NCBI GenBank assembly: GCA_050010675.1
Contig: JBEKKN010000003.1
Coordinates: forward strand, 1,668 to 65,667
Length of the DNA stretch: 64,000 nt
DNA from: Verrucomicrobiota bacterium
Lineage (GTDB): Bacteria > Verrucomicrobiota > Verrucomicrobiia > Limisphaerales > UBA11358
Direction of reading: 5' to 3'
A program made the translations under genes and the position numbers. This document shows positions 3,225-47,785 of this stretch, in pieces; the first letter of the stretch is position 1, and the number at the start of each line of letters is the position of its first letter. The notes beneath the pieces are model-generated. The model was not told the origin of the DNA. It ran no database searches and saw only the letters and a list, made by a program, of their open reading frames with translations.

Positions 3225-4583
3225 TTACATTTCCCAATCCGTCCACGTCACCAAATCGCCCAGTGCCGGCCGGCCGTCGTGCCGCCAGGTCAGCGGCGGA
3301 TTTTGCATCTGGCCAAGCGGACAGACCCGCGTCACGCCCCACCGCGCCAGTTGCCGTGCCAGTTCTTCCGCCTGCTCCGGTGCGGCGATGCCGACCGCCG
3401 AAACCTTTCCACGCACGACCTCGGCGTTTTGCAGCAGCTCGGTCAAATCCTTCACCGGTTTTACGTAAATGAACCGGTTCAGGCACGAGGTTTGAAAACG
3501 CGCGTCCGCTTCAAAAACTACCGTCCACGCCGTGGACTCCTTGCTGTGCCACATCAGTGTTTCGGGTGAATGCGCCGCCCGCACCTCGTAAATGCCCCGG
3601 CGCGACGCGATGGTCGCCGCGTGCGGCGCCGGCAATTCGCCGCGCGGCTCGGTCTGTTCACGCCGTTCCAATTCGTCCGCCAGCAACTCCGCGAATCTTT
3701 CGGCCGAAGCGTCACCGCCCGATTGAACGTAAATCACGTGCGGCGACAGGCAGCCAAGCTGGTTCCACGCCACCACGTCATCCGTCACGCGCGCGGCGAC
3801 TCGCGGCGCGCCGGCATGGGATAAAACCTCCTTGGCGACAAAACCAAAGCTCACGCGATGGCCGTAACCAAGAAAGCGCCTGGGTGCCGGCAACCGCGAG
3901 CGGATGACTGCCAGCGCTTCATCGCTGCCGGTCGCCGTGACACAATCGGCTTCGGCAAACAGGATGTCCTCCAGATCCGCGTTTCCGCCACGCCATTGGG
4001 CCAATTCCAGGCAGGCGCCCAGCTTGGGATCCGCCTCGTAGAGCGAGTGCGCGAACAGGCGCGGCAGAAATGCCGAACCGCTCGCACATTTCACGAATTG
4101 CGCCGAGCGCACCAGCAAACCGAGCACGATGCCTGTCAACGTCGGATTGGGAATGTTGCCGGCGGCGATGTGAACGAGGAACTCCGGCCCAACGACCGTC
4201 GCCGCGCGCGACGATTTTTGTTCCACGTCAGTCGCGGTCATGACGTCCAACCGGCGGGTGCTGCCGAATTCCTGAACCAGCAACGCGTGCAAATGGTCCC
4301 GGGTGATTTGCCGGAAGAAGTCATCCAGACCGCGTTTCAGCGTTGCCATGGAAAAACCGGTTTCGGTCGGGCCGAGTTCCAGCGCCAGCTGCCGAAACGT
4401 GTTGTCGGGTTTCAGCCAGCTTTCCGCCACGTCACTCAACACGTTCACAATTTGTTCCGTCGAACGCCCGACCAGGTACCGCTCACGGTTGCGCTTCAGC
4501 GTCTGACACGCCTCCGCCAGCATGACCGGCGACAGGGTGGCTTCCGGCGGCAGATCGACGAGAAAATAGTTTGGCAGATTCAT
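3225..4583 (-). CDS. LuxC-like acyl-CoA (acyl-protein) reductase
   Basis: 452 aa. Aldehyde-dehydrogenase-like catalytic Cys context WNQLGCLSPHVIYV. Length and overall layout resemble the LuxC family by eye. Lies immediately downstream of a LuxE-like gene. Confidence 0.7.
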   Translation of the reverse strand: MNLPNYFLVDLPPEATLSPVMLAEACQTLKRNRERYLVGRSTEQIVNVLSDVAESWLKPDNTFRQLALELGPTETGFSMATLKRGLDDFFRQITRDHLHALLVQEFGSTRRLDVMTATDVEQKSSRAATVVGPEFLVHIAAGNIPNPTLTGIVLGLLVRSAQFVKCASGSAFLPRLFAHSLYEADPKLGACLELAQWRGGNADLEDILFAEADCVTATGSDEALAVIRSRLPAPRRFLGYGHRVSFGFVAKEVLSHAGAPRVAARVTDDVVAWNQLGCLSPHVIYVQSGGDASAERFAELLADELERREQTEPRGELPAPHAATIASRRGIYEVRAAHSPETLMWHSKESTAWTVVFEADARFQTSCLNRFIYVKPVKDLTELLQNAEVVRGKVSAVGIAAPEQAEELARQLARWGVTRVCPLGQMQNPPLTWRHDGRPALGDLVTWTDWEM

Positions 4584-4585
4584 CA

Positions 4586-4613
4586 GATTTACGATTTACG
4601 ATTTGCGATTTAC
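4586..4613. repeat. Four tandem heptamers GATTTAC/GATTTGC (GTAAATC on the minus/sense strand)
   Basis: gatttac gatttac gatttgc gatttac. The array contains the LuxE-like stop codon (4610-4612) and ends 2 nt before the luxC-like ATG (4583). Confidence 0.9.
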
Positions 4614-5935
4614 GCACTCATCAATGAACAGCCGCGCAGCTCAGCCATCCGGGCGCGACCCATTAATTCAAATCCGCCCTCCCGGCGAACACCCAAATCC
4701 TCCGTTTGAACAGCCATCACGGAAGAGACATTCGCCAGATCCAAAACCCGGATCAATCCCGTTTCGCCGTCCGCCACCTCACGTCCAGTCTCCGGTGAAA
4801 TTATTTGCACCCGGGCCCAGGGGGGAAAATGGAAGTGACAGGTGACCGGTGACAGGTGACACGATGAGGCGGCTTCTCCTGACACTTGCCACGTGTCACC
4901 TGTCACGCCATAAGCTTGCGAACCCAACTCGCTCATGCCGTATTCGCACACGATATTTTCGGGCTGAACGCCGAGCCGCTCCGTGATGAGCGCGTGCAAC
5001 TCCTCCTTTGGCATCGCGCGGGAACGGTTTTTGTAACCGCCGGTCTCCATCACGTGCGAACCGACCGGCAGTTGGACACGCAAATTGTTTTCCACCAGAA
5101 AATCCAGCAGATGCACGAATGAAAAGGCCGTACCAAGCAGGAGACGGGGTCTGGGGTCAGGGGTCCCGGATCCGGGAGACAAAGCGGCGAGCACGGCGTC
5201 AAAATCGAGTTCCCAGGAACCGTCGGCGGCAATTTTGCCAAGAAATTCGGCCCGGCTCGCGGGGACGCTCGCCCCATCCATTTTTTGCCGCACGGTTTCA
5301 AACATGTGGACGAGCGACGAATGCGGCGCCTGCTCCCGGGGCGGCGTAAGGCAAAGCAATCGTAAATCGCAAATCGTAAATCGCAAACCCGGCAGGACGC
5401 TGGCGAGAAACCACGACCACAATGAAGTCTCGTAGAGTTCCAATGAAGCGGGACAATGGAAATGGCGGCTTGGCTCTTGCCCGGTCGTGCCGCTGGAATG
5501 GAAAACGGCGGTGCGTTCCGGTGGCGGCAGGCAGGTCAGTTCCAGTTCCTTGAACGCGGCGGTTGGCACGGCGGGAATTTGCGTCCAGTGCTCGACCGTC
5601 CGTGGTGTACGGCCCCGCGCCTCGCAGATTTTTTGATAGGCAATGTTATGTTCGAATTGGAGCGCGAAAAGCTTGAGTGCCAGCGTGTCAAATGTCAGTT
5701 CCGGGTAGGGGCGGCGCGCTGCGCCGACCGGACGCCGCAGCGCGGCGTCCCTACCTTGAATGGCCTCGCGCAGGCGGGCGGCAAAACTGGAAAGTTCTTT
5801 ATGCACGCGGTTTTTGGTTGTCGGCTGGTTTTCCGCCACAGCCGAAGCGCAGGATAGCACGAAAGGCAACCGCAGCAAGTGTGATTGATGCGGGACTTGC
5901 GCCACAGGATTGCCAAGGCCGCTTTTGTCCGTCAC
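4610..5935 (-). CDS. LuxE-like acyl-protein synthetase (adenylate-forming), start uncertain
   Basis: Contains HSSGTTG, METGGYK, YGMSELGSQ and PPWARVQIISPETG blocks, as in LuxE/ANL-type enzymes. There is no in-frame ATG in the N-terminal ~200 codons; GTG candidates lie at 5935 and 5806. The ORF contains three repeat elements in frame. Confidence 0.7.
   Translation of the reverse strand: MTDKSGLGNPVAQVPHQSHLLRLPFVLSCASAVAENQPTTKNRVHKELSSFAARLREAIQGRDAALRRPVGAARRPYPELTFDTLALKLFALQFEHNIAYQKICEARGRTPRTVEHWTQIPAVPTAAFKELELTCLPPPERTAVFHSSGTTGQEPSRHFHCPASLELYETSLWSWFLASVLPGLRFTICDLRLLCLTPPREQAPHSSLVHMFETVRQKMDGASVPASRAEFLGKIAADGSWELDFDAVLAALSPGSGTPDPRPRLLLGTAFSFVHLLDFLVENNLRVQLPVGSHVMETGGYKNRSRAMPKEELHALITERLGVQPENIVCEYGMSELGSQAYGVTGDTWQVSGEAASSCHLSPVTCHFHFPPWARVQIISPETGREVADGETGLIRVLDLANVSSVMAVQTEDLGVRREGGFELMGRARMAELRGCSLMSA
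4835..4906. repeat. 72-nt hairpin element: 4 GTGACAG-type heptamers, 16-nt spacer, 4 inverted CTGTCAC-type heptamers (inside the LuxE-like CDS)
   Basis: gtgacag gtgaccg gtgacag gtgacac (4835-4862) and ctgacac ttgccac gtgtcac ctgtcac (4879-4906). The element is exactly 24 codons. Confidence 0.9.
5355..5389. repeat. Five NNAAATC heptamers inside the LuxE-like CDS (inverted relative to the 4586-4613 array)
   Basis: agcaatc gtaaatc gcaaatc gtaaatc gcaaacc on the plus strand. Translated on the minus strand as RFTICDLRLL. Confidence 0.85.
5704..5755. repeat. 52-nt GC-rich double-hairpin REP-like element (GGTAGGG...CCCTACC family), inside the LuxE-like ORF
   Basis: ggtaggggcggcgcgctgcgccgaccggacgccgcagcgcggcgtccctacc. 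It is the near-identical reverse complement of 53690-53741. Confidence 0.85.
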
Positions 5936-5947
5936 ACTGGTGGTTCA

Positions 5948-7513
5948 ATGAACAAACGGTTTTTTATCACGACCGCGATCGATTACGTGAACGGCCAGCC
6001 GCACCTCGGCCACGCCTACGAAAAGATCGTTGCCGACGTGATCGCGCGGTCGCGGCGCAGTCTGGGTCAGGAGGTTTTTTTCCTGACCGGTCTCGACGAG
6101 CACGGCCAGAAGGTCCAGCAGGCCGCCATTGCCGAAGGCAAGACGCCGCAGGCTTATTGCGACCAACTGGCGGCGGACTGGAAGGCGTTTGCGAAAAAAC
6201 TGGAACTGACCAACGATGATTTTGTCCGCACCACCGAGCCGCGCCACAAGGAATTTGTCCAGGCGATTCTGGCCAGACTTCACGCCGCCGGACAATTTTA
6301 CAAGGAAACTTACAAGGGCTTTTACTCGACGAAAGAGGAGACGTTTTTGACCGACAAGGACCGCCTGCCTGATGGCACGTTTGATCCGGCGTACGGTGAA
6401 GTCATTGAACTCGAGGAAAGCAACTACTGGTTCAAGCTGCGGGCGCAGCAGCAGTGGTTGATTGATTACCTCGAAGCGAACCCCACGTTTGTGCAGCCCG
6501 ACTACCGCCGCAACGAGGTGCTCGGCTTTCTCAAGAACAGCACTTTGGAAGATCTCTGCATCACGCGTCCGGCGGCGCGGTTGAACTGGGGCATTCCCCT
6601 GCCTTTCGACAAGGATTTTGTCACCTACGTCTGGTTCGACGCCCTGGTCAATTACATCAGCATCCCTGCCGCCCACGGCGATGCCACCGTTCTGGCCGCA
6701 TCGAACTCCGAACTCCGAACTCCGAACTCCGAGTTTGAATTGTGGCCCGCCGACATCCATGTCATCGGCAAGGACATCTTGAAATTTCACGCCGTGTTCT
6801 GGCCGATCATGCTCAAGGCGATGGGCCTGCCGCTGCCGAAACAAATTCTGGTCCACGGCTGGTGGCAGAAGGAAGGCGCGAAGATCAGCAAGAGCACCGG
6901 CAACATCGTTGACCCCATCGCGGTCATCGACGAATGGGGCCTGGACGCCTTTCGTTTTTACGTCCTGCGCGAGCTGGACATCGGACCGGACGGCAACTGG
7001 ACCGACGCCGGATTCAGAGCGCGATACCAGGCCGAGCTCGCCAACGGGCTGGGCAATCTGGTGAACCGCTCGCTCTCCATGCTCAAACGTTATCGCAACG
7101 GCGTCGTGCCGGCCAAACACGATGAACTGGCCGCCGCGGCCGCCAAGGCGGCGGATGAGACCCACGCGTTGTTGAAACTGAACCAGCTACAAGCCGCACT
7201 CCAAAGCATCTGGGGGCTGGTTACCCGCGCGAACCAATACGTGGACCAGACCAGGCCGTTCAGCCTGGCCAAGGATCCAGCCCAAGCCAAACGGCTTGAC
7301 GAGGTGCTCTATAATCTCGTGGAAACGTGCCGGGTACTCGCGGTATTGTTATGGCCGTTTCTGCCCGACACGGCCACGAAGATTTACGCGCAACTCGGTT
7401 TGACCGGTACACCGGACAAATTCTCCGAAGCCACGTGGGGCGGATTGCCACCCGGCCACCCAATCGGCGAACCGGCACCGCTCTTTCCGCGTAAAGACAG
7501 CCCGCAACCTTGA
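5948..7513 (+). CDS. metG: Methionine--tRNA ligase
   Basis: HIGH-type motif GQPHLGHAYEKI, KMSKS-type motif AKISKSTGN, and WPADIHVIGKDILKFH. Start placed at ATG 5948 (MNKRFFITTAIDY). Confidence 0.95.
   Translation: MNKRFFITTAIDYVNGQPHLGHAYEKIVADVIARSRRSLGQEVFFLTGLDEHGQKVQQAAIAEGKTPQAYCDQLAADWKAFAKKLELTNDDFVRTTEPRHKEFVQAILARLHAAGQFYKETYKGFYSTKEETFLTDKDRLPDGTFDPAYGEVIELEESNYWFKLRAQQQWLIDYLEANPTFVQPDYRRNEVLGFLKNSTLEDLCITRPAARLNWGIPLPFDKDFVTYVWFDALVNYISIPAAHGDATVLAASNSELRTPNSEFELWPADIHVIGKDILKFHAVFWPIMLKAMGLPLPKQILVHGWWQKEGAKISKSTGNIVDPIAVIDEWGLDAFRFYVLRELDIGPDGNWTDAGFRARYQAELANGLGNLVNRSLSMLKRYRNGVVPAKHDELAAAAAKAADETHALLKLNQLQAALQSIWGLVTRANQYVDQTRPFSLAKDPAQAKRLDEVLYNLVETCRVLAVLLWPFLPDTATKIYAQLGLTGTPDKFSEATWGGLPPGHPIGEPAPLFPRKDSPQP
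6703..6730. repeat. Four perfect tandem GAACTCC heptamers inside metG
   Basis: gaactcc x4, followed by gagtttg. Translated in frame as SNSELRTPNSEFE. Confidence 0.95.
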
Positions 7514-28129: not shown

Positions 28130-29341
28130 ATGAACATTCACGAATATCAGGCCAAACAATTGCTCGCCCAACATGGCGTCGCCGTCCCGCTGGAGATCCC
28201 CGCGCGATCGCTCGAAGAGGTCCGCAGTGCGGCTGGAAAAATCCTGGCCGGCGGCAGCGCGAAAGTCGTGGTCAAATCCCAGATCCACGCGGGGGGACGC
28301 GGCAAGGGCCTGTTCACGAGCGGGTTTCAAGGCGGCGTGAAGGCGGCGGCCTCGGTGGAGGAAGCGGTTTCCCTGGCGGGCAGGATGCTCGGCAACGTGC
28401 TCGTCACCAAACAGACCGGCGCGGATGGCCGGCGCGTGCAAACCCTGCTCGTCTCCGAAGGCGCGAATATCAAAAAGGAATTTTACCTGGCCGTGCTGCT
28501 CGACCGCGCCGTCGGCCGCCCGCTCGTCATGGCCAGCACGGAAGGCGGCATGGACATCGAGGAAGTCGCCGGCAAAACGCCGGAGAAGATTTTCAAGGAA
28601 TGGGTTGACCCCGCCGTCGGCATCCAGCCGTTTCAGGCCCGTAAAATTGCCGCCGCGCTGGGGCTCAAAGGCGATTTATTCAACGCCGCCGCCCGGTTGG
28701 TCACCGGCGTTTTTAAAACGTGGTGGGAATGCGACGCGTCCCTCGTCGAAATCAACCCCCTGTGCGTCGTGGCGGCGCCCGATGGCAAGGAGACCGTGAT
28801 GGCCCTGGACGCCAAGATTTCAATCGATGACAACGCGCTTTACCGGCACAAGGATATTCAGGAAATGCGCGACCTGAACGAGGAAGCGCCGCTGGAAATC
28901 GAGGCCAGCAAATTCAATCTCAATTACATCAAACTCGATGGGTCCATCGCCTGCCTGGTCAACGGCGCGGGCCTGGCCATGGCCACCATGGATATCATCC
29001 AGCATTTCGGTGGCAGCCCGGCCAATTTCCTCGATGTGGGCGGCGGCGCGAGCAAGGAACAGGTGACGGCCGCGTTCAAAATCATCCTGCAGGATCCGCA
29101 CGTGAAGGGCATTCTGGTGAATATTTTCGGCGGCATCATGGATTGCAACGTCATTGCCACCGGCATCGTCGCGGCGGTCAAGGAAACGCACTTGCACATC
29201 CCGCTGGTCGTCCGGCTGGAAGGCAATAACGTGATGGCCGGCAAAAAAACCCTGGCTGAATCCGGTTTGAAACTCATCACCGGCGATTCCATGGCCGATG
29301 CGGCGCAGAAGGTGGTCCAGGCGGTGGCCGCCAGGCCGTGA
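28130..29341 (+). CDS. sucC: Succinate--CoA ligase, beta subunit
   Basis: [13 protein letters not shown]-terminus, ATP-grasp layout, and a [14 protein letters not shown] block. Confidence 0.95.
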
Positions 29342-29361: not shown

Positions 29362-29643
29362 ATGCTTCAAGACGAGGGGGACATACAGGCCATCAAACCG
29401 GCGGGGGACGATTCGGAACCGTACCGGCGGCTGATTGAATTGCAGAAACAGATGATTGGACTGGTTCAACAACACGAAAAGACGAAGCGCGAGTGCGCCG
29501 CCTTGCGCGCTCAATTGTTGGAGGAAACGGCTGGGCCGCGGCGGAGTTTGCGCCAGGGCATCGGCCGGCTGTTGGCCGGCGCGCTCCGGCGCGGCGCCGC
29601 CTCCTGGAAACCTCGCGTGGAAAGCCGCTCGCAACCGATATGA
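29362..29643 (+). CDS. Hypothetical small protein (coiled-coil-like) between sucC and sucD
   Basis: 93-aa ORF with ATG start. Its stop overlaps the ATG of the next gene (ATGA at 29640-29643), suggesting translational coupling. Confidence 0.4.
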   Translation: MLQDEGDIQAIKPAGDDSEPYRRLIELQKQMIGLVQQHEKTKRECAALRAQLLEETAGPRRSLRQGIGRLLAGALRRGAASWKPRVESRSQPI

Positions 29644-29999
29644 TCACCGAAATCGCATTTACCGGAACTCCCGTCACCGACATCCAACGCGCCCGCGCCT
29701 TTTACGAAGGCGTGCTGGGCCTCAAGCCCACCATGGAATCCGCCGGCGGTATGTGGGTCGAATACGAGATCGGCACCGGCACGCTCGGCATCGGCTGTTA
29801 CGGCGATGCCTGGAAACCGTCGCCGGACGGAACCTGCATTGCCTTCGAAGCGGACGATCTGGATGCGGAAGTTTCCCGGCTGAAGGCCTGCGGCGTGAAA
29901 TGTGCCATGGAACCCATGGACACACCGGTCTGCCGGTTCGCCATCTTTTGCGACCCGGACGGAAATAAAATCATGATTCATCAACGCAAGGCCGGCTGA
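29640..29999 (+). CDS. VOC (glyoxalase/bleomycin-resistance/dioxygenase) family protein
   Basis: 119 aa. Contains FYEGVLGLKP and FCDPDGNKIMIHQ, typical of the VOC fold. Confidence 0.75.
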   Translation: MITEIAFTGTPVTDIQRARAFYEGVLGLKPTMESAGGMWVEYEIGTGTLGIGCYGDAWKPSPDGTCIAFEADDLDAEVSRLKACGVKCAMEPMDTPVCRFAIFCDPDGNKIMIHQRKAG

Positions 30000-30001
30000 C
30001 C

Positions 30002-30036
30002 GTCAATCGCAAATCAAAAATCCGAAATCGAAAATC
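30002..30036. repeat. Five NNAAATC heptamers filling the spacer upstream of sucD
   Basis: gtcaatc gcaaatc aaaaatc cgaaatc gaaaatc, then aa, then the ATG at 30039. Confidence 0.9.
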
Positions 30037-30038
30037 AA

Positions 30039-30941
30039 ATGTCCATTCTCGTCCAACCCGACACCAAGGTCCTGGTCCAGGGCATCACCGGCAGTTTCGG
30101 CGCCAAACACGCGCAGCTCTCGATGGATTACGGCACGCAGGTCGTTGCCGGCGTCACCCCTGGCAAAGGCGGCCAGGTCTTCGAACACGGCGGCAAAAAA
30201 GCGCCCATCTTTGATACCGTCGCCGAGGCGGTGAAGCAAACCGGCGCGACCGCCTCCGCCATTTTTGTTCCGGCGGCCTTTGCCGCGGACGCCGTCCTGG
30301 AAGGGGTGGACGCCGGGCTGGCCGTGGTGGTGTGCATCACGGAAGGCATTCCGGCGCGCGATATGATTCGCGTGAAGCGGGCCATGCAGGGCAACACCCT
30401 GACGCACCTGATCGGACCGAATTGTCCCGGCGTGGTCACCCCGGGTGAAGGCAAGGACTCTCATGGCGGTTGTCGTATCGGAATCGCGCCCGGTTACATT
30501 CACAAACAAGGCCACATCGGCGTCGTCTCCCGCAGCGGCACGCTCACTTACGAAGCCGTCTGGCAACTCACCTGTCGCGGCGCGGGCCAAAGCACCTGCG
30601 TCGGCATCGGCGGCGATCCAGTCCCCGGCCTGTCGCACCTGGACGTCATCAAACTGTTCAACGAAGACCCGGACACGCACGGGATCATCATGATCGGCGA
30701 AATCGGCGGCAGCGCCGAGGAGGAGGCCGCGGCCTGGATTAAAGCGCATGGCAAAAAGCCCGTGGCCGGATTCATCGCCGGGGCCACCGCGCCGCCCGGA
30801 CGCCGCATGGGTCACGCCGGCGCCATCATCAGCGGTGGCAAGGGCACGGCGGCGGCAAAGATGACGGCCTTCCGCGATGCAGGCATTGGCGTGGCCGCCA
30901 CGCCGAGTGAAATGGCGGACACCCTCTTGAAAATGATGTGA
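30039..30941 (+). CDS. sucD: Succinate--CoA ligase, alpha subunit
   Basis: [24 protein letters not shown] and a phosphohistidine block ([11 protein letters not shown]). Confidence 0.95.
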
Positions 30942-30943
30942 AT

Positions 30944-31003
30944 GTCGTTGAATCCTGAATCGTTAAGTCGTTAAATCGGTTTGACGATTCACCGGTTCAA
31001 CGG
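30944..31003. repeat. Imperfect hairpin built from CGTTGAA/TCGTTAA-type heptamers (sucD 3' spacer)
   Basis: The left arm tcgttgaatcctgaatcgt and the right arm acgattcaccggttcaacgg are imperfect reverse complements. Confidence 0.6.
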
Positions 31004-38222: not shown

Positions 38223-38300
38223 ACACGAATGCCCGAAACAGAATCCGGCGAGAAATTTCTTTCGTGTGTTTCAGGTATTTTGTGGTTTGATTCGTTGTGC

Positions 38301-38328
38301 CAATCGTAAATCATCAATCGTAAATCAT
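38301..38328. repeat. Two tandem 14-mers (four NNAAATC-type heptamers) abutting the tmk start
   Basis: caatcgtaaatcat x2, then aa, then the ATG at 38331. Confidence 0.9.
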
Positions 38329-38330
38329 AA

Positions 38331-38987
38331 ATGGCAAGAGGCCTGTTCATCACATTTGAGGGCACGGAAGGCTGCGGCAAATCCACGCAGATTGAACTGC
38401 TCGCCAAAACGCTGCGCGTGCTCGGCTACCGCGTCCACATGCTGCGCGAGCCGGGCGGCACGCCCGTGGGCGAGGAAATCCGCCACACCCTCAAGCACAG
38501 CAAGGCCAACGTGGCCATGACCCCGGAAACCGAATTGCTGCTGGTGAACGCCAGCCGGGCGCAGCTCGTCCGGGAAATCATCCGCCCCGCGCTGGCCGTC
38601 GGTGAGGTCGTCCTGTCCGACCGCTTTTACGATTCGACCACGGCATACCAGGGTCATGGCCGGGGGCTCGATCTGGCGCTGGTGAAAAGCGTGATTGATG
38701 TTGCCGTGGGCGACACCCGGCCGGATTTGACCTTGTTTCTGCACGTGTCACCCGAAGTCAGCGCGGAACGGCTGCTGTCGCGGCAATCCACCCTGCCCTT
38801 CATCCGCGACCGGATGGAAGAAGGGGACCGGAACTTTTTTGCCCGCGTCGCCAAAGGCTACGAGGCCATTGCCGCCGCCGAACCCCGGCGCGTACAGGTG
38901 GTGGACGGCGCCAGCTCCATCGAGTTTGTCTGCGCAAAAATCTGGGAACAGGTGCAGCCCATCCTGCCGCGCGTCGGGCGTTGGTGA
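38331..38987 (+). CDS. tmk: Thymidylate kinase
   Basis: P-loop FEGTEGCGKST, DRFYDSTTAYQG, 218 aa. Confidence 0.9.
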   Translation: MARGLFITFEGTEGCGKSTQIELLAKTLRVLGYRVHMLREPGGTPVGEEIRHTLKHSKANVAMTPETELLLVNASRAQLVREIIRPALAVGEVVLSDRFYDSTTAYQGHGRGLDLALVKSVIDVAVGDTRPDLTLFLHVSPEVSAERLLSRQSTLPFIRDRMEEGDRNFFARVAKGYEAIAAAEPRRVQVVDGASSIEFVCAKIWEQVQPILPRVGRW

Positions 38988-39360: not shown

Positions 39361-39364
39361 TTGT

Positions 39365-39433
39365 GGGAGGGACGGCGTGTCGCCGTCCCTGACTGCTCGT
39401 AAAATTGGGGACGCCGACACGGCGTCCCTCCCC
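39365..39433. repeat. Double-hairpin REP-like element (GGGAGGGAC family), copy A, between convergent genes
   Basis: Contains gggacggcg-tgt-cgccgtccc and gggacgccg-aca-cggcgtccc inside an outer gggaggg...ccctccc pair. Reverse complement of copy B at 45854-45922. Confidence 0.9.
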
Positions 39434-39442
39434 AAACACATA

Positions 39443-42111: not shown

Positions 42112-42230
42112 GGACAGATGGACACAAATGAAAATGGATGGATGGATGGATGGATAAATGGAGAATTGGCGTTTTCACCAATCCATCAATCCATTTATCC
42201 ATCGATCCAACGATTGTATCCGGGTTCATC
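42112..42230. repeat. GGAT-rich imperfect inverted repeat (tyrA-aroA spacer)
   Basis: The tandem run aatggatggatggatggatggataaatgga faces ccaatccatcaatccatttatccatcgatcca. There is a perfect complementary 14-mer core: gatggataaatgga at 42149-42162 and tccatttatccatc at 42190-42203. It shares acagatggacac with the 3193-3222 arm. Confidence 0.75.
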
Positions 42231-44469: not shown

Positions 44470-45285
44470 GGCCTCCCGCACACTTTCCAAAATCACGTCG
44501 GCCAGATGCGGCTCGCTGCCGATGGCGGGCGCGTACCAGACCAGTTTGCTGTTTTTTTCAGTCGGATTGCGCCAGACCGGCTGGCCGGCGGCCAGCCGTT
44601 GCGAAACCGCCGCCCGGGATTCGCCCAGCAAAACCGGAATATCTTCCCGCGTGTGCAGCCCGTCGCTGATAAAAAACGGCACGACGACGAGATTTTTTGT
44701 CTGCGCGAGCTGGTAGCATTCGGGAATGCGCGGGCTTTCTTCAAGAAAAATCGCGTGCACACCGGCGTAAAGGTTCATCGCCCGCAGCAAGGCCACCTGC
44801 CGGTCAACCGGTTTGCGTGAATTCTCGTTTTTCTCCGTGCCATGCCCGGCAATGAACAGCGTGAGCTCTCCCGGCCGGGGCGCGCGGGGGAATGGAAACT
44901 TTTCAACAATTTCCCGGGCGCGGGACAGGATCACGCCCGTCATGCTGTCGTGCGAACCAACGGGACGGCAGTAAATCCGTGTTGAATGTTGAGTGTTGAG
45001 CGTTGAAAGACCAGGGGCAAAACCAAGCTCGCGGGGGATGACTTCACTGGCGAAATAGCCTTCGCTGATGAAAAGCGGTGCGATGAAGACGCGCGGCGCG
45101 GAAAGTTTCGCGAGGACCCGCTTGATTTGCGGTTGCTGTTTCCAGAACGCCTCGTGGACTTCGGCGAAAAGGCTCCGGCGGCGCAATTCCGCCGCGTGTT
45201 GACGGACCGGCGCGGCGGAATCGGCGTTTTGCTCCGTGCCGTGACCCAGCACCACGAGCGCGGCATCGGTAAAAGTATTGTCCAC
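44434..45285 (-). CDS. cbiX: Sirohydrochlorin chelatase, two-domain CbiX/SirB type
   Basis: Two CbiX-like halves (VVLGHGTEQNADS...APLFISEGYF and FIAGHGTEKNENS...VPFFISDGLH). Confidence 0.75.
   Translation of the reverse strand: MDNTFTDAALVVLGHGTEQNADSAAPVRQHAAELRRRSLFAEVHEAFWKQQPQIKRVLAKLSAPRVFIAPLFISEGYFASEVIPRELGFAPGLSTLNTQHSTRIYCRPVGSHDSMTGVILSRAREIVEKFPFPRAPRPGELTLFIAGHGTEKNENSRKPVDRQVALLRAMNLYAGVHAIFLEESPRIPECYQLAQTKNLVVVPFFISDGLHTREDIPVLLGESRAAVSQRLAAGQPVWRNPTEKNSKLVWYAPAIGSEPHLADVILESVREACRSRGDETRTE
44979..45006. repeat. Four RYGTTGA heptamers inside cbiX
   Basis: gtgttga atgttga gtgttga gcgttga. Translated on the minus strand as part of LSTLNTQHSTRIY, between the two CbiX halves. 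Confidence 0.9.
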
Positions 45286-45925: not shown

Positions 45926-47785
45926 TTACAACGGTGACAACGGCGCGCGTTTTTGTTCGCGCAACTTCTGCTGCTGGCGCAGCAATTCATTTTGTTCCGC
46001 TTCGGGCATGCCCGGCTGGCTGATTTTTTGGGTGAGGCTGGCGATTTGCCGGTCCAAAAATTGATTCCGCAATTTCGACGCGACGTCGCCCAGCTGCTGT
46101 TCGGGATTGGGAATTTTGCGGTCTTCGGCCACGGCTTCGGTGATGAGACCCCGCATTTCGGGCAATTCGCATTCGTCCAGAAACGCACCGAGACTCTTCC
46201 AGGTTTCATTCGTCTGCGCGGCGAGTCGTTGCGCGACAATTTGCCGCACGAGCGGATGGGAAATCCAATTCACATCCAGATGCAGCGCCGCCCAGGCCAC
46301 CAGATCGTCGTGCAACAGCAACAGTTTCAGCAGATGAAATTCATGATTCGGCGGACGTGACGGTTCCGACTGGCCGGCCATCGGTTCAGCCTCGCCCTGG
46401 TCCGGTTCGGTTCTCACCGCTGGAACCTTTTTGAATTCGGCCCGCACGGCCTCGGGCGCAACCCCCAGCCGCAATGCGGTTTTTTGCGCGTAGGTGTCAA
46501 TCAAGACGGAGTTGGCGGTTTTATGAATGGCCTCGGCCATGTCATGTAAAATGGTGTTCCGGCCCTTGTCGCTGTTGGCATCATTCTGCGCGCACAGCCG
46601 GTTCAAATAGTAATCGAAAAATCCCCCGGCATTTTCAACGAGCTTGCGAAAGGCTTCGCCGCCGTTGGCCTTGATAAAACTGTCCGGGTCGTGCGGCGCG
46701 GGCACGACGGCGACGCGCACCGCCAGGCCGGACGCGAGCAGATGGTCGAGTGAACGCACGGCGGCGTTCTGGCCGGCTTCGTCCGAATCGAAACAGAGCA
46801 CGACCTCGTCCGCGTACCGCTTGAGGATGCGTGCGTGCTGATCGGTGAAGGCGGTGCCCTGCGGCGCGACGACGTTTTGCACGCCGCCCATGAAGCAGGC
46901 GATCAAATCCAGCTGGCCTTCGCAGACCACCGCAAACCCGGCGTCGAGGATGGCGCGTTTCGATTTGTCGAGGCCGAAGAAAATCCTGCTCTTGGTGAAA
47001 ATCGGCGTCTCCGGCGAGTTGACGTATTTGGCCGTTTTTTCGTCGCCGGACAAAATCCGGCCGCTGAAACCGATTACCCTGCCCTGCTCGTCGCAAATGG
47101 GAAAGATGAGGCGCCCGCGGAAACGGTCATAGTAATGCCGGAAGGCAGACGCCTGAGGCCGGAGATCCGATTTCACACTTTCGCTTTCCGACTTCTGACT
47201 TCCGGCTTCTGACTTCTGAATAATAAGTCCGGCCTTTTCGACCAGCGGCAGGTCGTGGTCCTTGCTTTTGGCCCAATTGACCGTGTCATCCCACAAATCC
47301 GGCGCGGCGCCGAGGCGGAAGAGTTTTACGGCGTCAGCGGATACACCGCGTTTGGCCAGATAATCGCGGGCCATCTGCCCGGCGGCCTCATTGAGCAGGC
47401 AATTCTGCCAGCGTTGCGCGATTTGCTCGTGAATCTGGAGTAATTGGTCCTTGAGATGACGGGTTTGCTGTTCGGCGGGGTTTTGATCAAATTCGAGCGG
47501 AACCTTCGCACGGTCGGCCAGGCGGCGCACAGCGTCGACGAAACCGATGTTTTCGTATTCCTTGACGAAGGTGAACACGTCACCGCCCTTGTGGCAGCCG
47601 AAACAATGGAATATCTGCCGGTGCGGATTGACGTTGAAGCTCGGGCTTTTTTCCTTGTGAAAGGGGCAGAGCGCGACAAAGTTCGCCCCGGCCTTTTTCA
47701 ACGGCAGATACGAGCCAATGACATCCACAATGTCACTGGCCGCGCGGATGCGTTCAAGGATTGCAGGAGGTATGGTGCCCGCCAT
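45926..47785 (-). CDS. dnaG: DNA primase
   Basis: Zinc-ribbon CPFHKEKSPSFNV...CFGCHKGGD, YDRFRGRLIFPI, and TOPRIM blocks VVCEGQLD and CFDSDEAGQNA. Confidence 0.9.
   Translation of the reverse strand: MAGTIPPAILERIRAASDIVDVIGSYLPLKKAGANFVALCPFHKEKSPSFNVNPHRQIFHCFGCHKGGDVFTFVKEYENIGFVDAVRRLADRAKVPLEFDQNPAEQQTRHLKDQLLQIHEQIAQRWQNCLLNEAAGQMARDYLAKRGVSADAVKLFRLGAAPDLWDDTVNWAKSKDHDLPLVEKAGLIIQKSEAGSQKSESESVKSDLRPQASAFRHYYDRFRGRLIFPICDEQGRVIGFSGRILSGDEKTAKYVNSPETPIFTKSRIFFGLDKSKRAILDAGFAVVCEGQLDLIACFMGGVQNVVAPQGTAFTDQHARILKRYADEVVLCFDSDEAGQNAAVRSLDHLLASGLAVRVAVVPAPHDPDSFIKANGGEAFRKLVENAGGFFDYYLNRLCAQNDANSDKGRNTILHDMAEAIHKTANSVLIDTYAQKTALRLGVAPEAVRAEFKKVPAVRTEPDQGEAEPMAGQSEPSRPPNHEFHLLKLLLLHDDLVAWAALHLDVNWISHPLVRQIVAQRLAAQTNETWKSLGAFLDECELPEMRGLITEAVAEDRKIPNPEQQLGDVASKLRNQFLDRQIASLTQKISQPGMPEAEQNELLRQQQKLREQKRAPLSPL
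47167..47222. repeat. Eight YNNNCTT-type heptamers (AAGTCAG on the sense strand) inside dnaG
   Basis: ccgattt cacactt tcgcttt ccgactt ctgactt ccggctt ctgactt ctgaata. Translated on the minus strand as QKSEAGSQKSESESVKSD. Confidence 0.85.

Follow-up and report, generated by a model that had tools for sequence, protein, structure and literature searches.

In a stretch of 64,000 nucleotides from the Verrucomicrobiota contig JBEKKN010000003.1 (assembly GCA_050010675.1, positions 1,668 to 65,667), which was analysed as a whole and is called the window below, tandem arrays of the heptamer NNAAATC stand in sense orientation directly in front of the start codons of three genes, namely sucD, a luxC-like gene and tmk. 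Judging by the names of homologues and by metagenome sources, the host is a peat or soil verrucomicrobium. The same rule of orientation and distance reaches well beyond the window and is found in at least five major lineages. We hold with moderate confidence that these are slippage-prone heptamer arrays which occupy gene junctions and are kept in front of start codons only in the orientation that is unstructured and free of start codons, where they would serve as a passive leader independent of a Shine-Dalgarno (SD) motif. The arrays of the window would then belong to a group of short heptanucleotide repeats in tandem that is widespread at gene junctions, and would be transcribed as the whole 5' leader or as an intercistronic spacer in an SD-poor verrucomicrobium. 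Such a leader, G-poor, A-rich and devoid of rival start codons and of secondary structure, would leave the AUG accessible. The arrays would arise, change their number of units, decay and be replaced repeatedly, probably via slipped-strand mispairing, and selection would retain only the sense orientation directly before a start, as the reverse one would place false starts next to the true AUG. Most likely, the arrays are tolerated, perhaps mildly beneficial, and not essential.

The 39-nt spacer in front of sucD (30000-30038, plus strand) consists of cc, five heptamers and aa (GTCAATC GCAAATC AAAAATC CGAAATC GAAAATC + aa, 30002-30038); the ATG follows at 30039, and the TGA stop of the glyoxalase-like gene upstream lies at 29997-29999. 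This glyoxalase/VOC-family gene (29493-29999) is situated between sucC (28130-29341) and sucD. On the minus strand, the luxC array GTAAATC GCAAATC GTAAATC GTAAATC (4613-4586) is followed by tg (4585-4584) and the ATG (4583-4581); the stop codon TAA of luxE (4612-4610) falls within its first unit. The tmk array (38299-38333, plus strand) reads GCCAATC GTAAATC ATCAATC GTAAATC ATAA-ATG: four units (38299-38326) are followed by ATAA-ATG, so that the ATG (38331-38333) stands in register in a fifth unit, ATAAATG. Thus, sense orientation combined with a 2-nt gap or an in-register ATG is common to all three leader arrays of the window, and the arrays adjoin the start codons of sucD, luxC and tmk just as the earlier note on this DNA had described them. 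The gene identities were confirmed with Pfam, which also placed the called starts at or near the true N-termini. For sucD (succinyl-CoA ligase alpha subunit, 30039-30941, plus strand), positions 3-97 of the CoA_binding profile match residues 8-103, and for tmk (dTMP kinase, 38331-38987, plus strand) positions 1-185 of the Thymidylate_kin profile match residues 9-204; for the luxC-like acyl-CoA reductase (3225-4583, minus strand), the ATGAATCTGCCAAAC start is likewise called in relatives.

Arrays of this kind are strongly enriched in the window. With at most one mismatch, nine three-unit NNAAATC matches were found, compared to 0.00 expected from 100 shuffles; for period-7 arrays of all words, the corresponding values are 7-9 and 0.4-1.4. 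TRF likewise reported a period of 7, with 4-5 tandem units at each of the three leader sites. A fourth array of the same family, which the earlier note had overlooked, is located at 5357-5389 on the plus strand (CAATC GT AAATC GC AAATC GT AAATC GC AAACC). It lies inside the luxE-like open reading frame (ORF; 4610-5935, minus strand), is antisense to it and is translated as ...RFTICDLRL....

In order to survey orientation and distance beyond the window, a public genome collection (596 Gb) was scanned for four exact NNAAATC units, for which about one chance match is expected. The sample comprises at least 120 loci, none of them from the window's own genome; including the window there are 144 arrays, all oriented as NNAAATC for the comparison. 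The listed loci belong to Cyanobacteria, Bacteroidota, Chloroflexota, Acidobacteriota, Verrucomicrobiota, Planctomycetota, Patescibacteria and other groups. All counts from this survey given here and below refer to the matches listed, in the case of the 144 arrays together with those of the window. An ATG at +2 to +5 after the last C occurs in 37 of the 144 arrays in sense, compared to 6 in antisense; among these ATGs, 26 in sense and 2 in antisense open an ORF of at least 100 amino acids. The strict test, which required an ATG at an offset of -3 to +9 and an ORF of at least 100 amino acids, gave 31 sense and 4 antisense cases (p = 3.5e-6). Calls of long ORFs can be trusted in loci with a GC content of at most 55%; there, a start is no more than 10 nt away from the AAATC-3' end in 26 cases, and a divergent start adjoins the 5' end in one. 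The sense bias is present in every major clade, and the downstream proteins are all different. In eight of ten sampled proteins downstream of public arrays, Pfam profile position 1-2 falls at residues 1-7; among those sampled are L16, ATP synthase gamma, NrdR, an RsmI-type methylase, DUF520 (YajQ family), a glyoxalase and TsaE, and aconitase is also found downstream of public arrays. Random orientation and placement, which the earlier note had named as the outcome that would speak against its proposal, is thus not what was observed across these phyla. The consistent orientation it had asserted applies to arrays that adjoin starts and does not extend to other places, as the antisense copy in luxE and the inverted hairpin pairs after stop codons described below demonstrate.

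A simple property of the word may explain this bias. In sense, 135 of the 144 arrays lack ATG, GTG and TTG in every frame; read as the reverse complement, 125 have such a start codon in at least one frame and 19 have none. The stop codon content is alike in both orientations. A reversed array (GAUUUNN) directly before a gene would therefore put a UUG, GUG or AUG next to the true start, and this start-codon asymmetry offers a simple filter by which selection could generate the orientation bias. A filter of this kind fits with the established view that initiation at starts without an SD motif depends above all on accessibility.

SD motifs are rare in the window altogether. Of the 59 genes of the window, only 10 show an SD 4-mer in front of any of their candidate starts, which is below the chance expectation of about 24%. 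No such 4-mer precedes sucD, luxC or tmk, and the same is true of most window genes; ftsA, with GGAGG-aaaa-ATG, is one of two clear SD cases. A motif scan therefore bore out the earlier observation that the three array genes lack an SD motif and that ftsA possesses one, whereas the lack turned out to be nothing special to these genes. Nor is it tied to the array: SD is absent from 75 of 77 sucD relatives, array present or not, and only two of the 77 have even a weak SD-like motif. Predicted folding energies of the leaders (-35 to +25) are -1.9, -3.9 and -4.5 kcal/mol, compared to a median of -8.9 kcal/mol for 32 start regions, among which the three array leaders rank 1, 3 and 5 as the least structured; their predicted accessibilities are 0.82, 0.72 and 0.66 versus 0.51. 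According to these predictions, it is low structure and not the absence of an SD motif that sets the three genes apart. A metatranscriptome contig (29906-30106) spans the array and reaches into both the upstream gene and sucD, which indicates that the sucD array is transcribed as an intercistronic spacer; this is a single contig, for which DNA carry-over is possible. No Rfam match at gathering threshold was obtained for the whole window, and the search for promoters and terminators in the sucC-to-sucD region gave nothing above shuffle expectation. Reading the tmk array as a promoter or in terms of a leaderless mRNA was rejected: there is no sigma-70-like site on the coding strand, and TAAATC, which is missing the last T, stands too near to the ATG.

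The history of the sucD site was followed in 77 metagenome loci (of 80 collected) with SucD identities of 84-100%. At least two exact in-register AAATC cores are found in 35 of the 77 loci and at least three in 24, and antisense arrays in none of the 77. Between sucC and sucD, relatives have differing genes or none, and arrays are present with a glyoxalase-like gene, another gene or sucC itself upstream. In many relatives, array units also make up the end of the upstream gene, including its stop and final codons (...AAC AAA TCG TAA ATC...). The sucD tree contains at least 11 strongly supported gains or losses of the array; in the clade to which the window belongs, the array has been passed on by descent and has undergone substitutions chiefly at the NN positions. 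The number of units is not constant at a given site: sucD is preceded by 0 to 5 exact in-register cores and tmk by 3-4 units.

Such variation is what one would also expect of contingency loci, in which slippage gains or losses of 7-nt units switch or tune the downstream gene (phase variation), and tandem repeats in 5' regions do so in some pathogens (reviewed in PMC4679880). For the arrays studied here, we consider this highly improbable. A 7-nt change in a leader causes no frame shift downstream, and the upstream stop lies in or before the first unit; moreover, the genes are housekeeping genes. No promoter-like site on the coding strand spans the arrays, and changes in unit number would hence not alter promoter spacing. 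Contigs of four independent metagenomes contain point variants of the strain and one 1-nt insertion and no 7-nt indels, with the reservation that rare variants drop out of contigs.

For the tmk and luxE/luxC sites, 10 syntenic loci from relatives were compared. At tmk, 3-4 units ending in register at the ATG are found in five of six lineages (80-95% Tmk identity), and the sixth has a period-9 repeat in place of the array. The last 28 nt before the gene are 46-79% identical, compared to 23-32%, which is the random level, for the spacer further upstream. The luxE/luxC junction is occupied by the same AAATC array as in the window in L207, by a GC-rich hairpin in L208 and L209, and by a period-8 GTTAAAYC array (x4, at about 4950-5000) in L210 (LuxC 75% identity). 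Judged from these comparisons, gene junctions are recurrent landing or expansion sites for repeats. The alternative offered in the earlier note, that the elements insert at or spread from such sites, fits with the gains and losses at sucD and with the empty or refilled luxE/luxC junction. A period-8 relative of the NNAAATC word, AATCGTTA, also occurs in the window directly past the sucD stop (30958-30978); together with the array of L210 it indicates that the repeat period is not strictly 7. An origin of the luxC array by duplication of a native ATGAATC at the start, for which L206 and the window were compared, is regarded as speculative, since the registers align unconvincingly. In the long contigs L203 and L205, many housekeeping genes, among them dnaG, cysS and the genes of EPSP synthase and citrate synthase, were called as fragments; these split genes are probably due to long-read frameshift errors rather than being pseudogenes.

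The word is not confined to the vicinity of start codons. In the low-GC loci, the AAATC-3' end rather than the 5' end faces convergent stop codons in 9 versus 3 cases within 10 nt and in 16 versus 6 within 30 nt, and the ORFs concerned are genuine long ORFs. A first-pass asymmetry of 32 versus 12 was not retained as firm; it fell to 9 versus 3 in the low-GC loci and was partly due to inverted pairs. An inverted partner is present for a third of the stop-adjoining arrays, and such pairs are nearly always arranged as (GATTTNN)n-loop-(NNAAATC)n (29 versus 5). Three settings can accordingly be told apart for the NNAAATC family: before starts it forms solo sense arrays, after stops hairpin pairs, and within ORFs it is present as in-frame copies. 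The window carries a GC-rich palindrome (39361-39442) between the convergent DUF4404 and acyltransferase genes. In the same spacer, L202 (11035-11116) has an inverted AAATC-family pair, (GATTTAC)n ... (NNAAATC)n, and in L204 (11032-11063) only a (GATTTAC)n arm was detected by the scan; different repeats appear to be interchangeable at this site. In Microcoleus and related cyanobacteria (L007, L011, L019, L039, L041, L088, L091, L112, L113), (TAAAATC)n is placed between the inverted 7-mers GTCAATC ... GATTGAC/GACTGAC, often with the conserved left flank TTYATCYGTGGA; if there is a gene downstream, its ATG is part of the right flank, which then reads GAATGAC. A Thermoanaerobaculia metagenome-assembled genome (L103, about 2820-2967 and 5050-5193) contains a nested composite hairpin, in which AAATC-family arrays flank an inner (GATGAAC)n / (GTTCATC)n pair.

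These settings bring in a serious rival, to which we assign a limited chance of being right: the polarity might stem from the process that makes the arrays, or from a small mobile element, which would place them as selfish or neutral products at the boundaries of coding sequences with the AAATC-3' end facing the gene; the position of the arrays before ATGs would in that case be a by-product without any role in translation. In agreement with such a polar mechanism, a gene boundary, convergent stops included, is at most 10 nt away from the AAATC-3' end in 35 of 75 arrays and from the 5' end in 4 of 71; the inverted pairs are built in one direction; the Microcoleus arrays have conserved inverted 7-mer flanks (GTCAATC...GATTGAC); and the same junctions are empty or occupied by other repeats in relatives, with the many gains and losses at the sucD site adding to this. 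However, the bias at starts (26:1) is far above that at stops (9:3 and 16:6), and at tmk the AAATC cores are kept down to 80% protein identity, although the flanking spacer is randomised. Furthermore, neither a transposase nor a donor copy nor a target-site duplication came to light, and the NN positions differ from unit to unit, as they would after slippage in situ and mutation and not in copies of one element.

Several findings weigh against a passive leader kept by a filter on orientation. The filter alone leaves the sharp spacing of 2-5 nt between array and ATG unaccounted for, and the same applies to the AAATC-3' ends at convergent stops (9 versus 3) and to the outward-facing pairs (29 versus 5). 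Several sucD relatives manage with an array-free spacer of 6-8 nt, and in L206 (LuxC 89% identity) the luxE/luxC junction is empty and the genes overlap as ATGA. Empty or refilled junctions and short spacers indicate that the arrays are dispensable, and any benefit must be small, given their absence in close relatives. Ten arrays of other words at starts, an underpowered number, have 10% G on the sense strand and A about equal to T, which is not significant; a general rule of an 'A-rich sense strand' for other heptamer words at starts was accordingly dropped. The orientation survey covered public loci and the window, and gene starts in the public loci were set by ORF rules and not by annotation. 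Finally, any effect of the arrays on translation is inferred, and so are the selective filter and the origin by slippage.

The A-rich, unstructured and SD-independent leader proposed in the earlier note stood up with respect to A-richness and low predicted structure; in its stronger form, as a dedicated initiation signal, it is unlikely on comparative grounds, since the arrays are dispensable in close relatives. This bears on a further explanation, namely that the AAAUC cores are specifically recognised by an RNA-binding protein (ribosomal protein S1, one of the Csp or CsrA type, or another one), which would recruit or block the ribosome and control a post-transcriptional regulon. The AAATC core is conserved and NN variable at tmk, in five of six lineages, and at sucD, and the core recurs before starts in Cyanobacteria, Bacteroidota, Acidobacteriota, Chloroflexota and bacteria of the Planctomycetota-Verrucomicrobiota-Chlamydiota (PVC) group; a binding role has also been proposed for the TAACTGA repeats (PMC4679880) and the Nostoc heptamers (bioRxiv 10.1101/2022.06.06.494920) discussed below. 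On the other hand, the downstream genes lack a common function (sucD, tmk and luxC in the window; L16, ATP synthase gamma, NrdR, TsaE and aconitase elsewhere), the dispensability in close relatives applies here as well, identical cores are also found within ORFs and as part of hairpin pairs, and no candidate protein was found, so that we consider protein binding quite unlikely. Little credence is also given to a more ambitious joint claim: that NNAAATC arrays are a cross-phylum initiation module, spread by convergence or horizontally among bacteria with little SD use and produced by a polar generator at coding-sequence boundaries, that AAAUC is read by S1 or a dedicated factor, and that inverted pairs double as terminator-like hairpins.

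Tandem repeats of heptanucleotides have been on record for cyanobacteria since 1990; those of other bacteria became known from the 2000s onwards, and to our knowledge no function was ever established for them. Mazel et al. reportedly described the STRR heptamers of heterocystous cyanobacteria in 1990. Mrazek, Guo and Shah are said to have found, in PNAS in 2007, that some bacterial genomes are overly rich in tandem repeats of period 7, an excess which was largely unexplained and did not concern classic phase-variation loci; their survey is not known to have reported a link to start codons or an orientation bias for a word of the AAATC type. A close counterpart are the TAACTGA heptamers of marine Beggiatoaceae, Cyanobacteria and Bacteroidetes, which occur as direct repeats of 2 to about 6 copies (MacGregor 2015, Front Microbiol 6:1397, PMC4679880). 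They stand forward, end about 1 nt before starts without an SD motif, in some cases extend over upstream stops, and are reversed inside ORFs; the host is SD-poor (25% of genes), the downstream genes have no common function, and binding of S1, Csp or CsrA, or irrelevance, was put forward without tests (PMC4679880). The arrays of the window share with them the tandem 7-nt units in sense near a start, the lack of SD in an SD-poor host, the overlap with upstream stops (the luxE TAA and the sucD relatives), the reverse orientation in an ORF (luxE) and the variety of genes. In contrast, our word, NNAAATC, leaves two positions free, whereas TAACTGA is fixed; the phylum is Verrucomicrobiota, and there is comparative evidence of turnover, of an empty site and of replacement by other repeats. 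TAACTGA provides stops in all three forward frames, whereas NNAAATC does so only for some NN, and stop-free arrays occur in sense in long ORFs. In low-GC listed loci (e.g. L107, L108, L029), the stop-free words CAAAATC and CCAAATC are found inside long ORFs 17 times in sense and 5 times in antisense; the reverse orientation in ORFs is thus limited to stop-bearing words such as GTAAATC. From their sequence, the arrays of the window are members of a broader class of heptamers near start codons and not of the TAACTGA family itself.

For Nostoc sp. PCC 7120, heptamers within 30 nt of starts or over them have been described for at least 13 genes, with the words TTCAAAA and GAC[C/T]AAT, and a role in translation or regulation was suspected (Pradhan et al. 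2022, bioRxiv 10.1101/2022.06.06.494920). Deletion of repeats left the basal promoter activity unchanged and altered the effects of LexA and NtcA (bioRxiv 10.1101/2022.06.06.494920). Both these and our arrays are tandem heptamers at starts; the words differ, as do those of the STRR heptamers. Many NNAAATC arrays of the cyanobacteria in the public sample adjoin ATGs, as the Nostoc heptamers do.

Leaders that function without an SD motif are familiar from other systems; the omega leader of tobacco mosaic virus with its (CAA)n repeats is of the unstructured, SD-independent type. Boni (1991) and Komarova (2005) are said to have characterised S1-dependent enhancers, Scharff (2011) reportedly found a local absence of structure at SD-less starts, and Baez (2019) is credited with the A-rich Kozak-like leaders of Bacteroidetes. 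Like such A/U-rich leaders, the arrays are A-rich, G-poor and free of structure before the AUG, in a host that rarely uses SD; unlike the arrays, those leaders are not tandem heptamers and show no repeat turnover, and an enhancer activity of the arrays is putative. Repetitive extragenic palindromic (REP) elements, REPINs and Rickettsia palindromic elements occur at gene junctions and in frame in genes. The resemblance consists in small repeats in permissive junctions or protein loops that are swapped at the same site (the hairpin of L208 and L209; window 39361-39442). The start arrays differ, as they are solo direct repeats without a hairpin, their leaders are nearly free of structure, and neither a RAYT transposase nor a GTAG-type motif accompanies them.

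The window contains further repeats. Period-7 arrays of other words lie in frame in metG (6702-6732), dnaG (47186-47219), cbiX (44980-45006) and, at 4835-4906 and 5146-5165, in luxE; across these four genes, the words are CGAACTC, TTCTGAC, TGTTGAA, the inverted pair GTGACAG/CTGTCAC, and GGGGTCA. Pfam domain matches are split into two stretches in metG, cbiX and dnaG. An inverted pair of short ATGG/ATCCAT-type repeats is found between the prephenate dehydrogenase and EPSP synthase genes (42132-42209). In two relatives, L201 (14883-14912) and L202 (14896-14923), period-7 arrays of the type (GGATGNA)n precede the prephenate dehydrogenase start by 12-15 nt, which indicates that other words, too, lie near start codons.

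For the start-codon anatomy of the TAACTGA repeats, the arrays add a new phylum and a new word family, and for one such family they add quantitative evidence for a rule of orientation and distance in at least five major lineages. They also supply a concrete candidate reason for the orientation bias, as start codons are absent in sense and present in antisense. The relatives constitute a natural deletion series, with 0-5 units at sucD and an empty luxE/luxC junction. If the arrays aid initiation, SD-poor bacteria would build accessible start sites out of repeat DNA; if they do not, the arrays would be a clean case of selection filtering selfish repeats at gene junctions.

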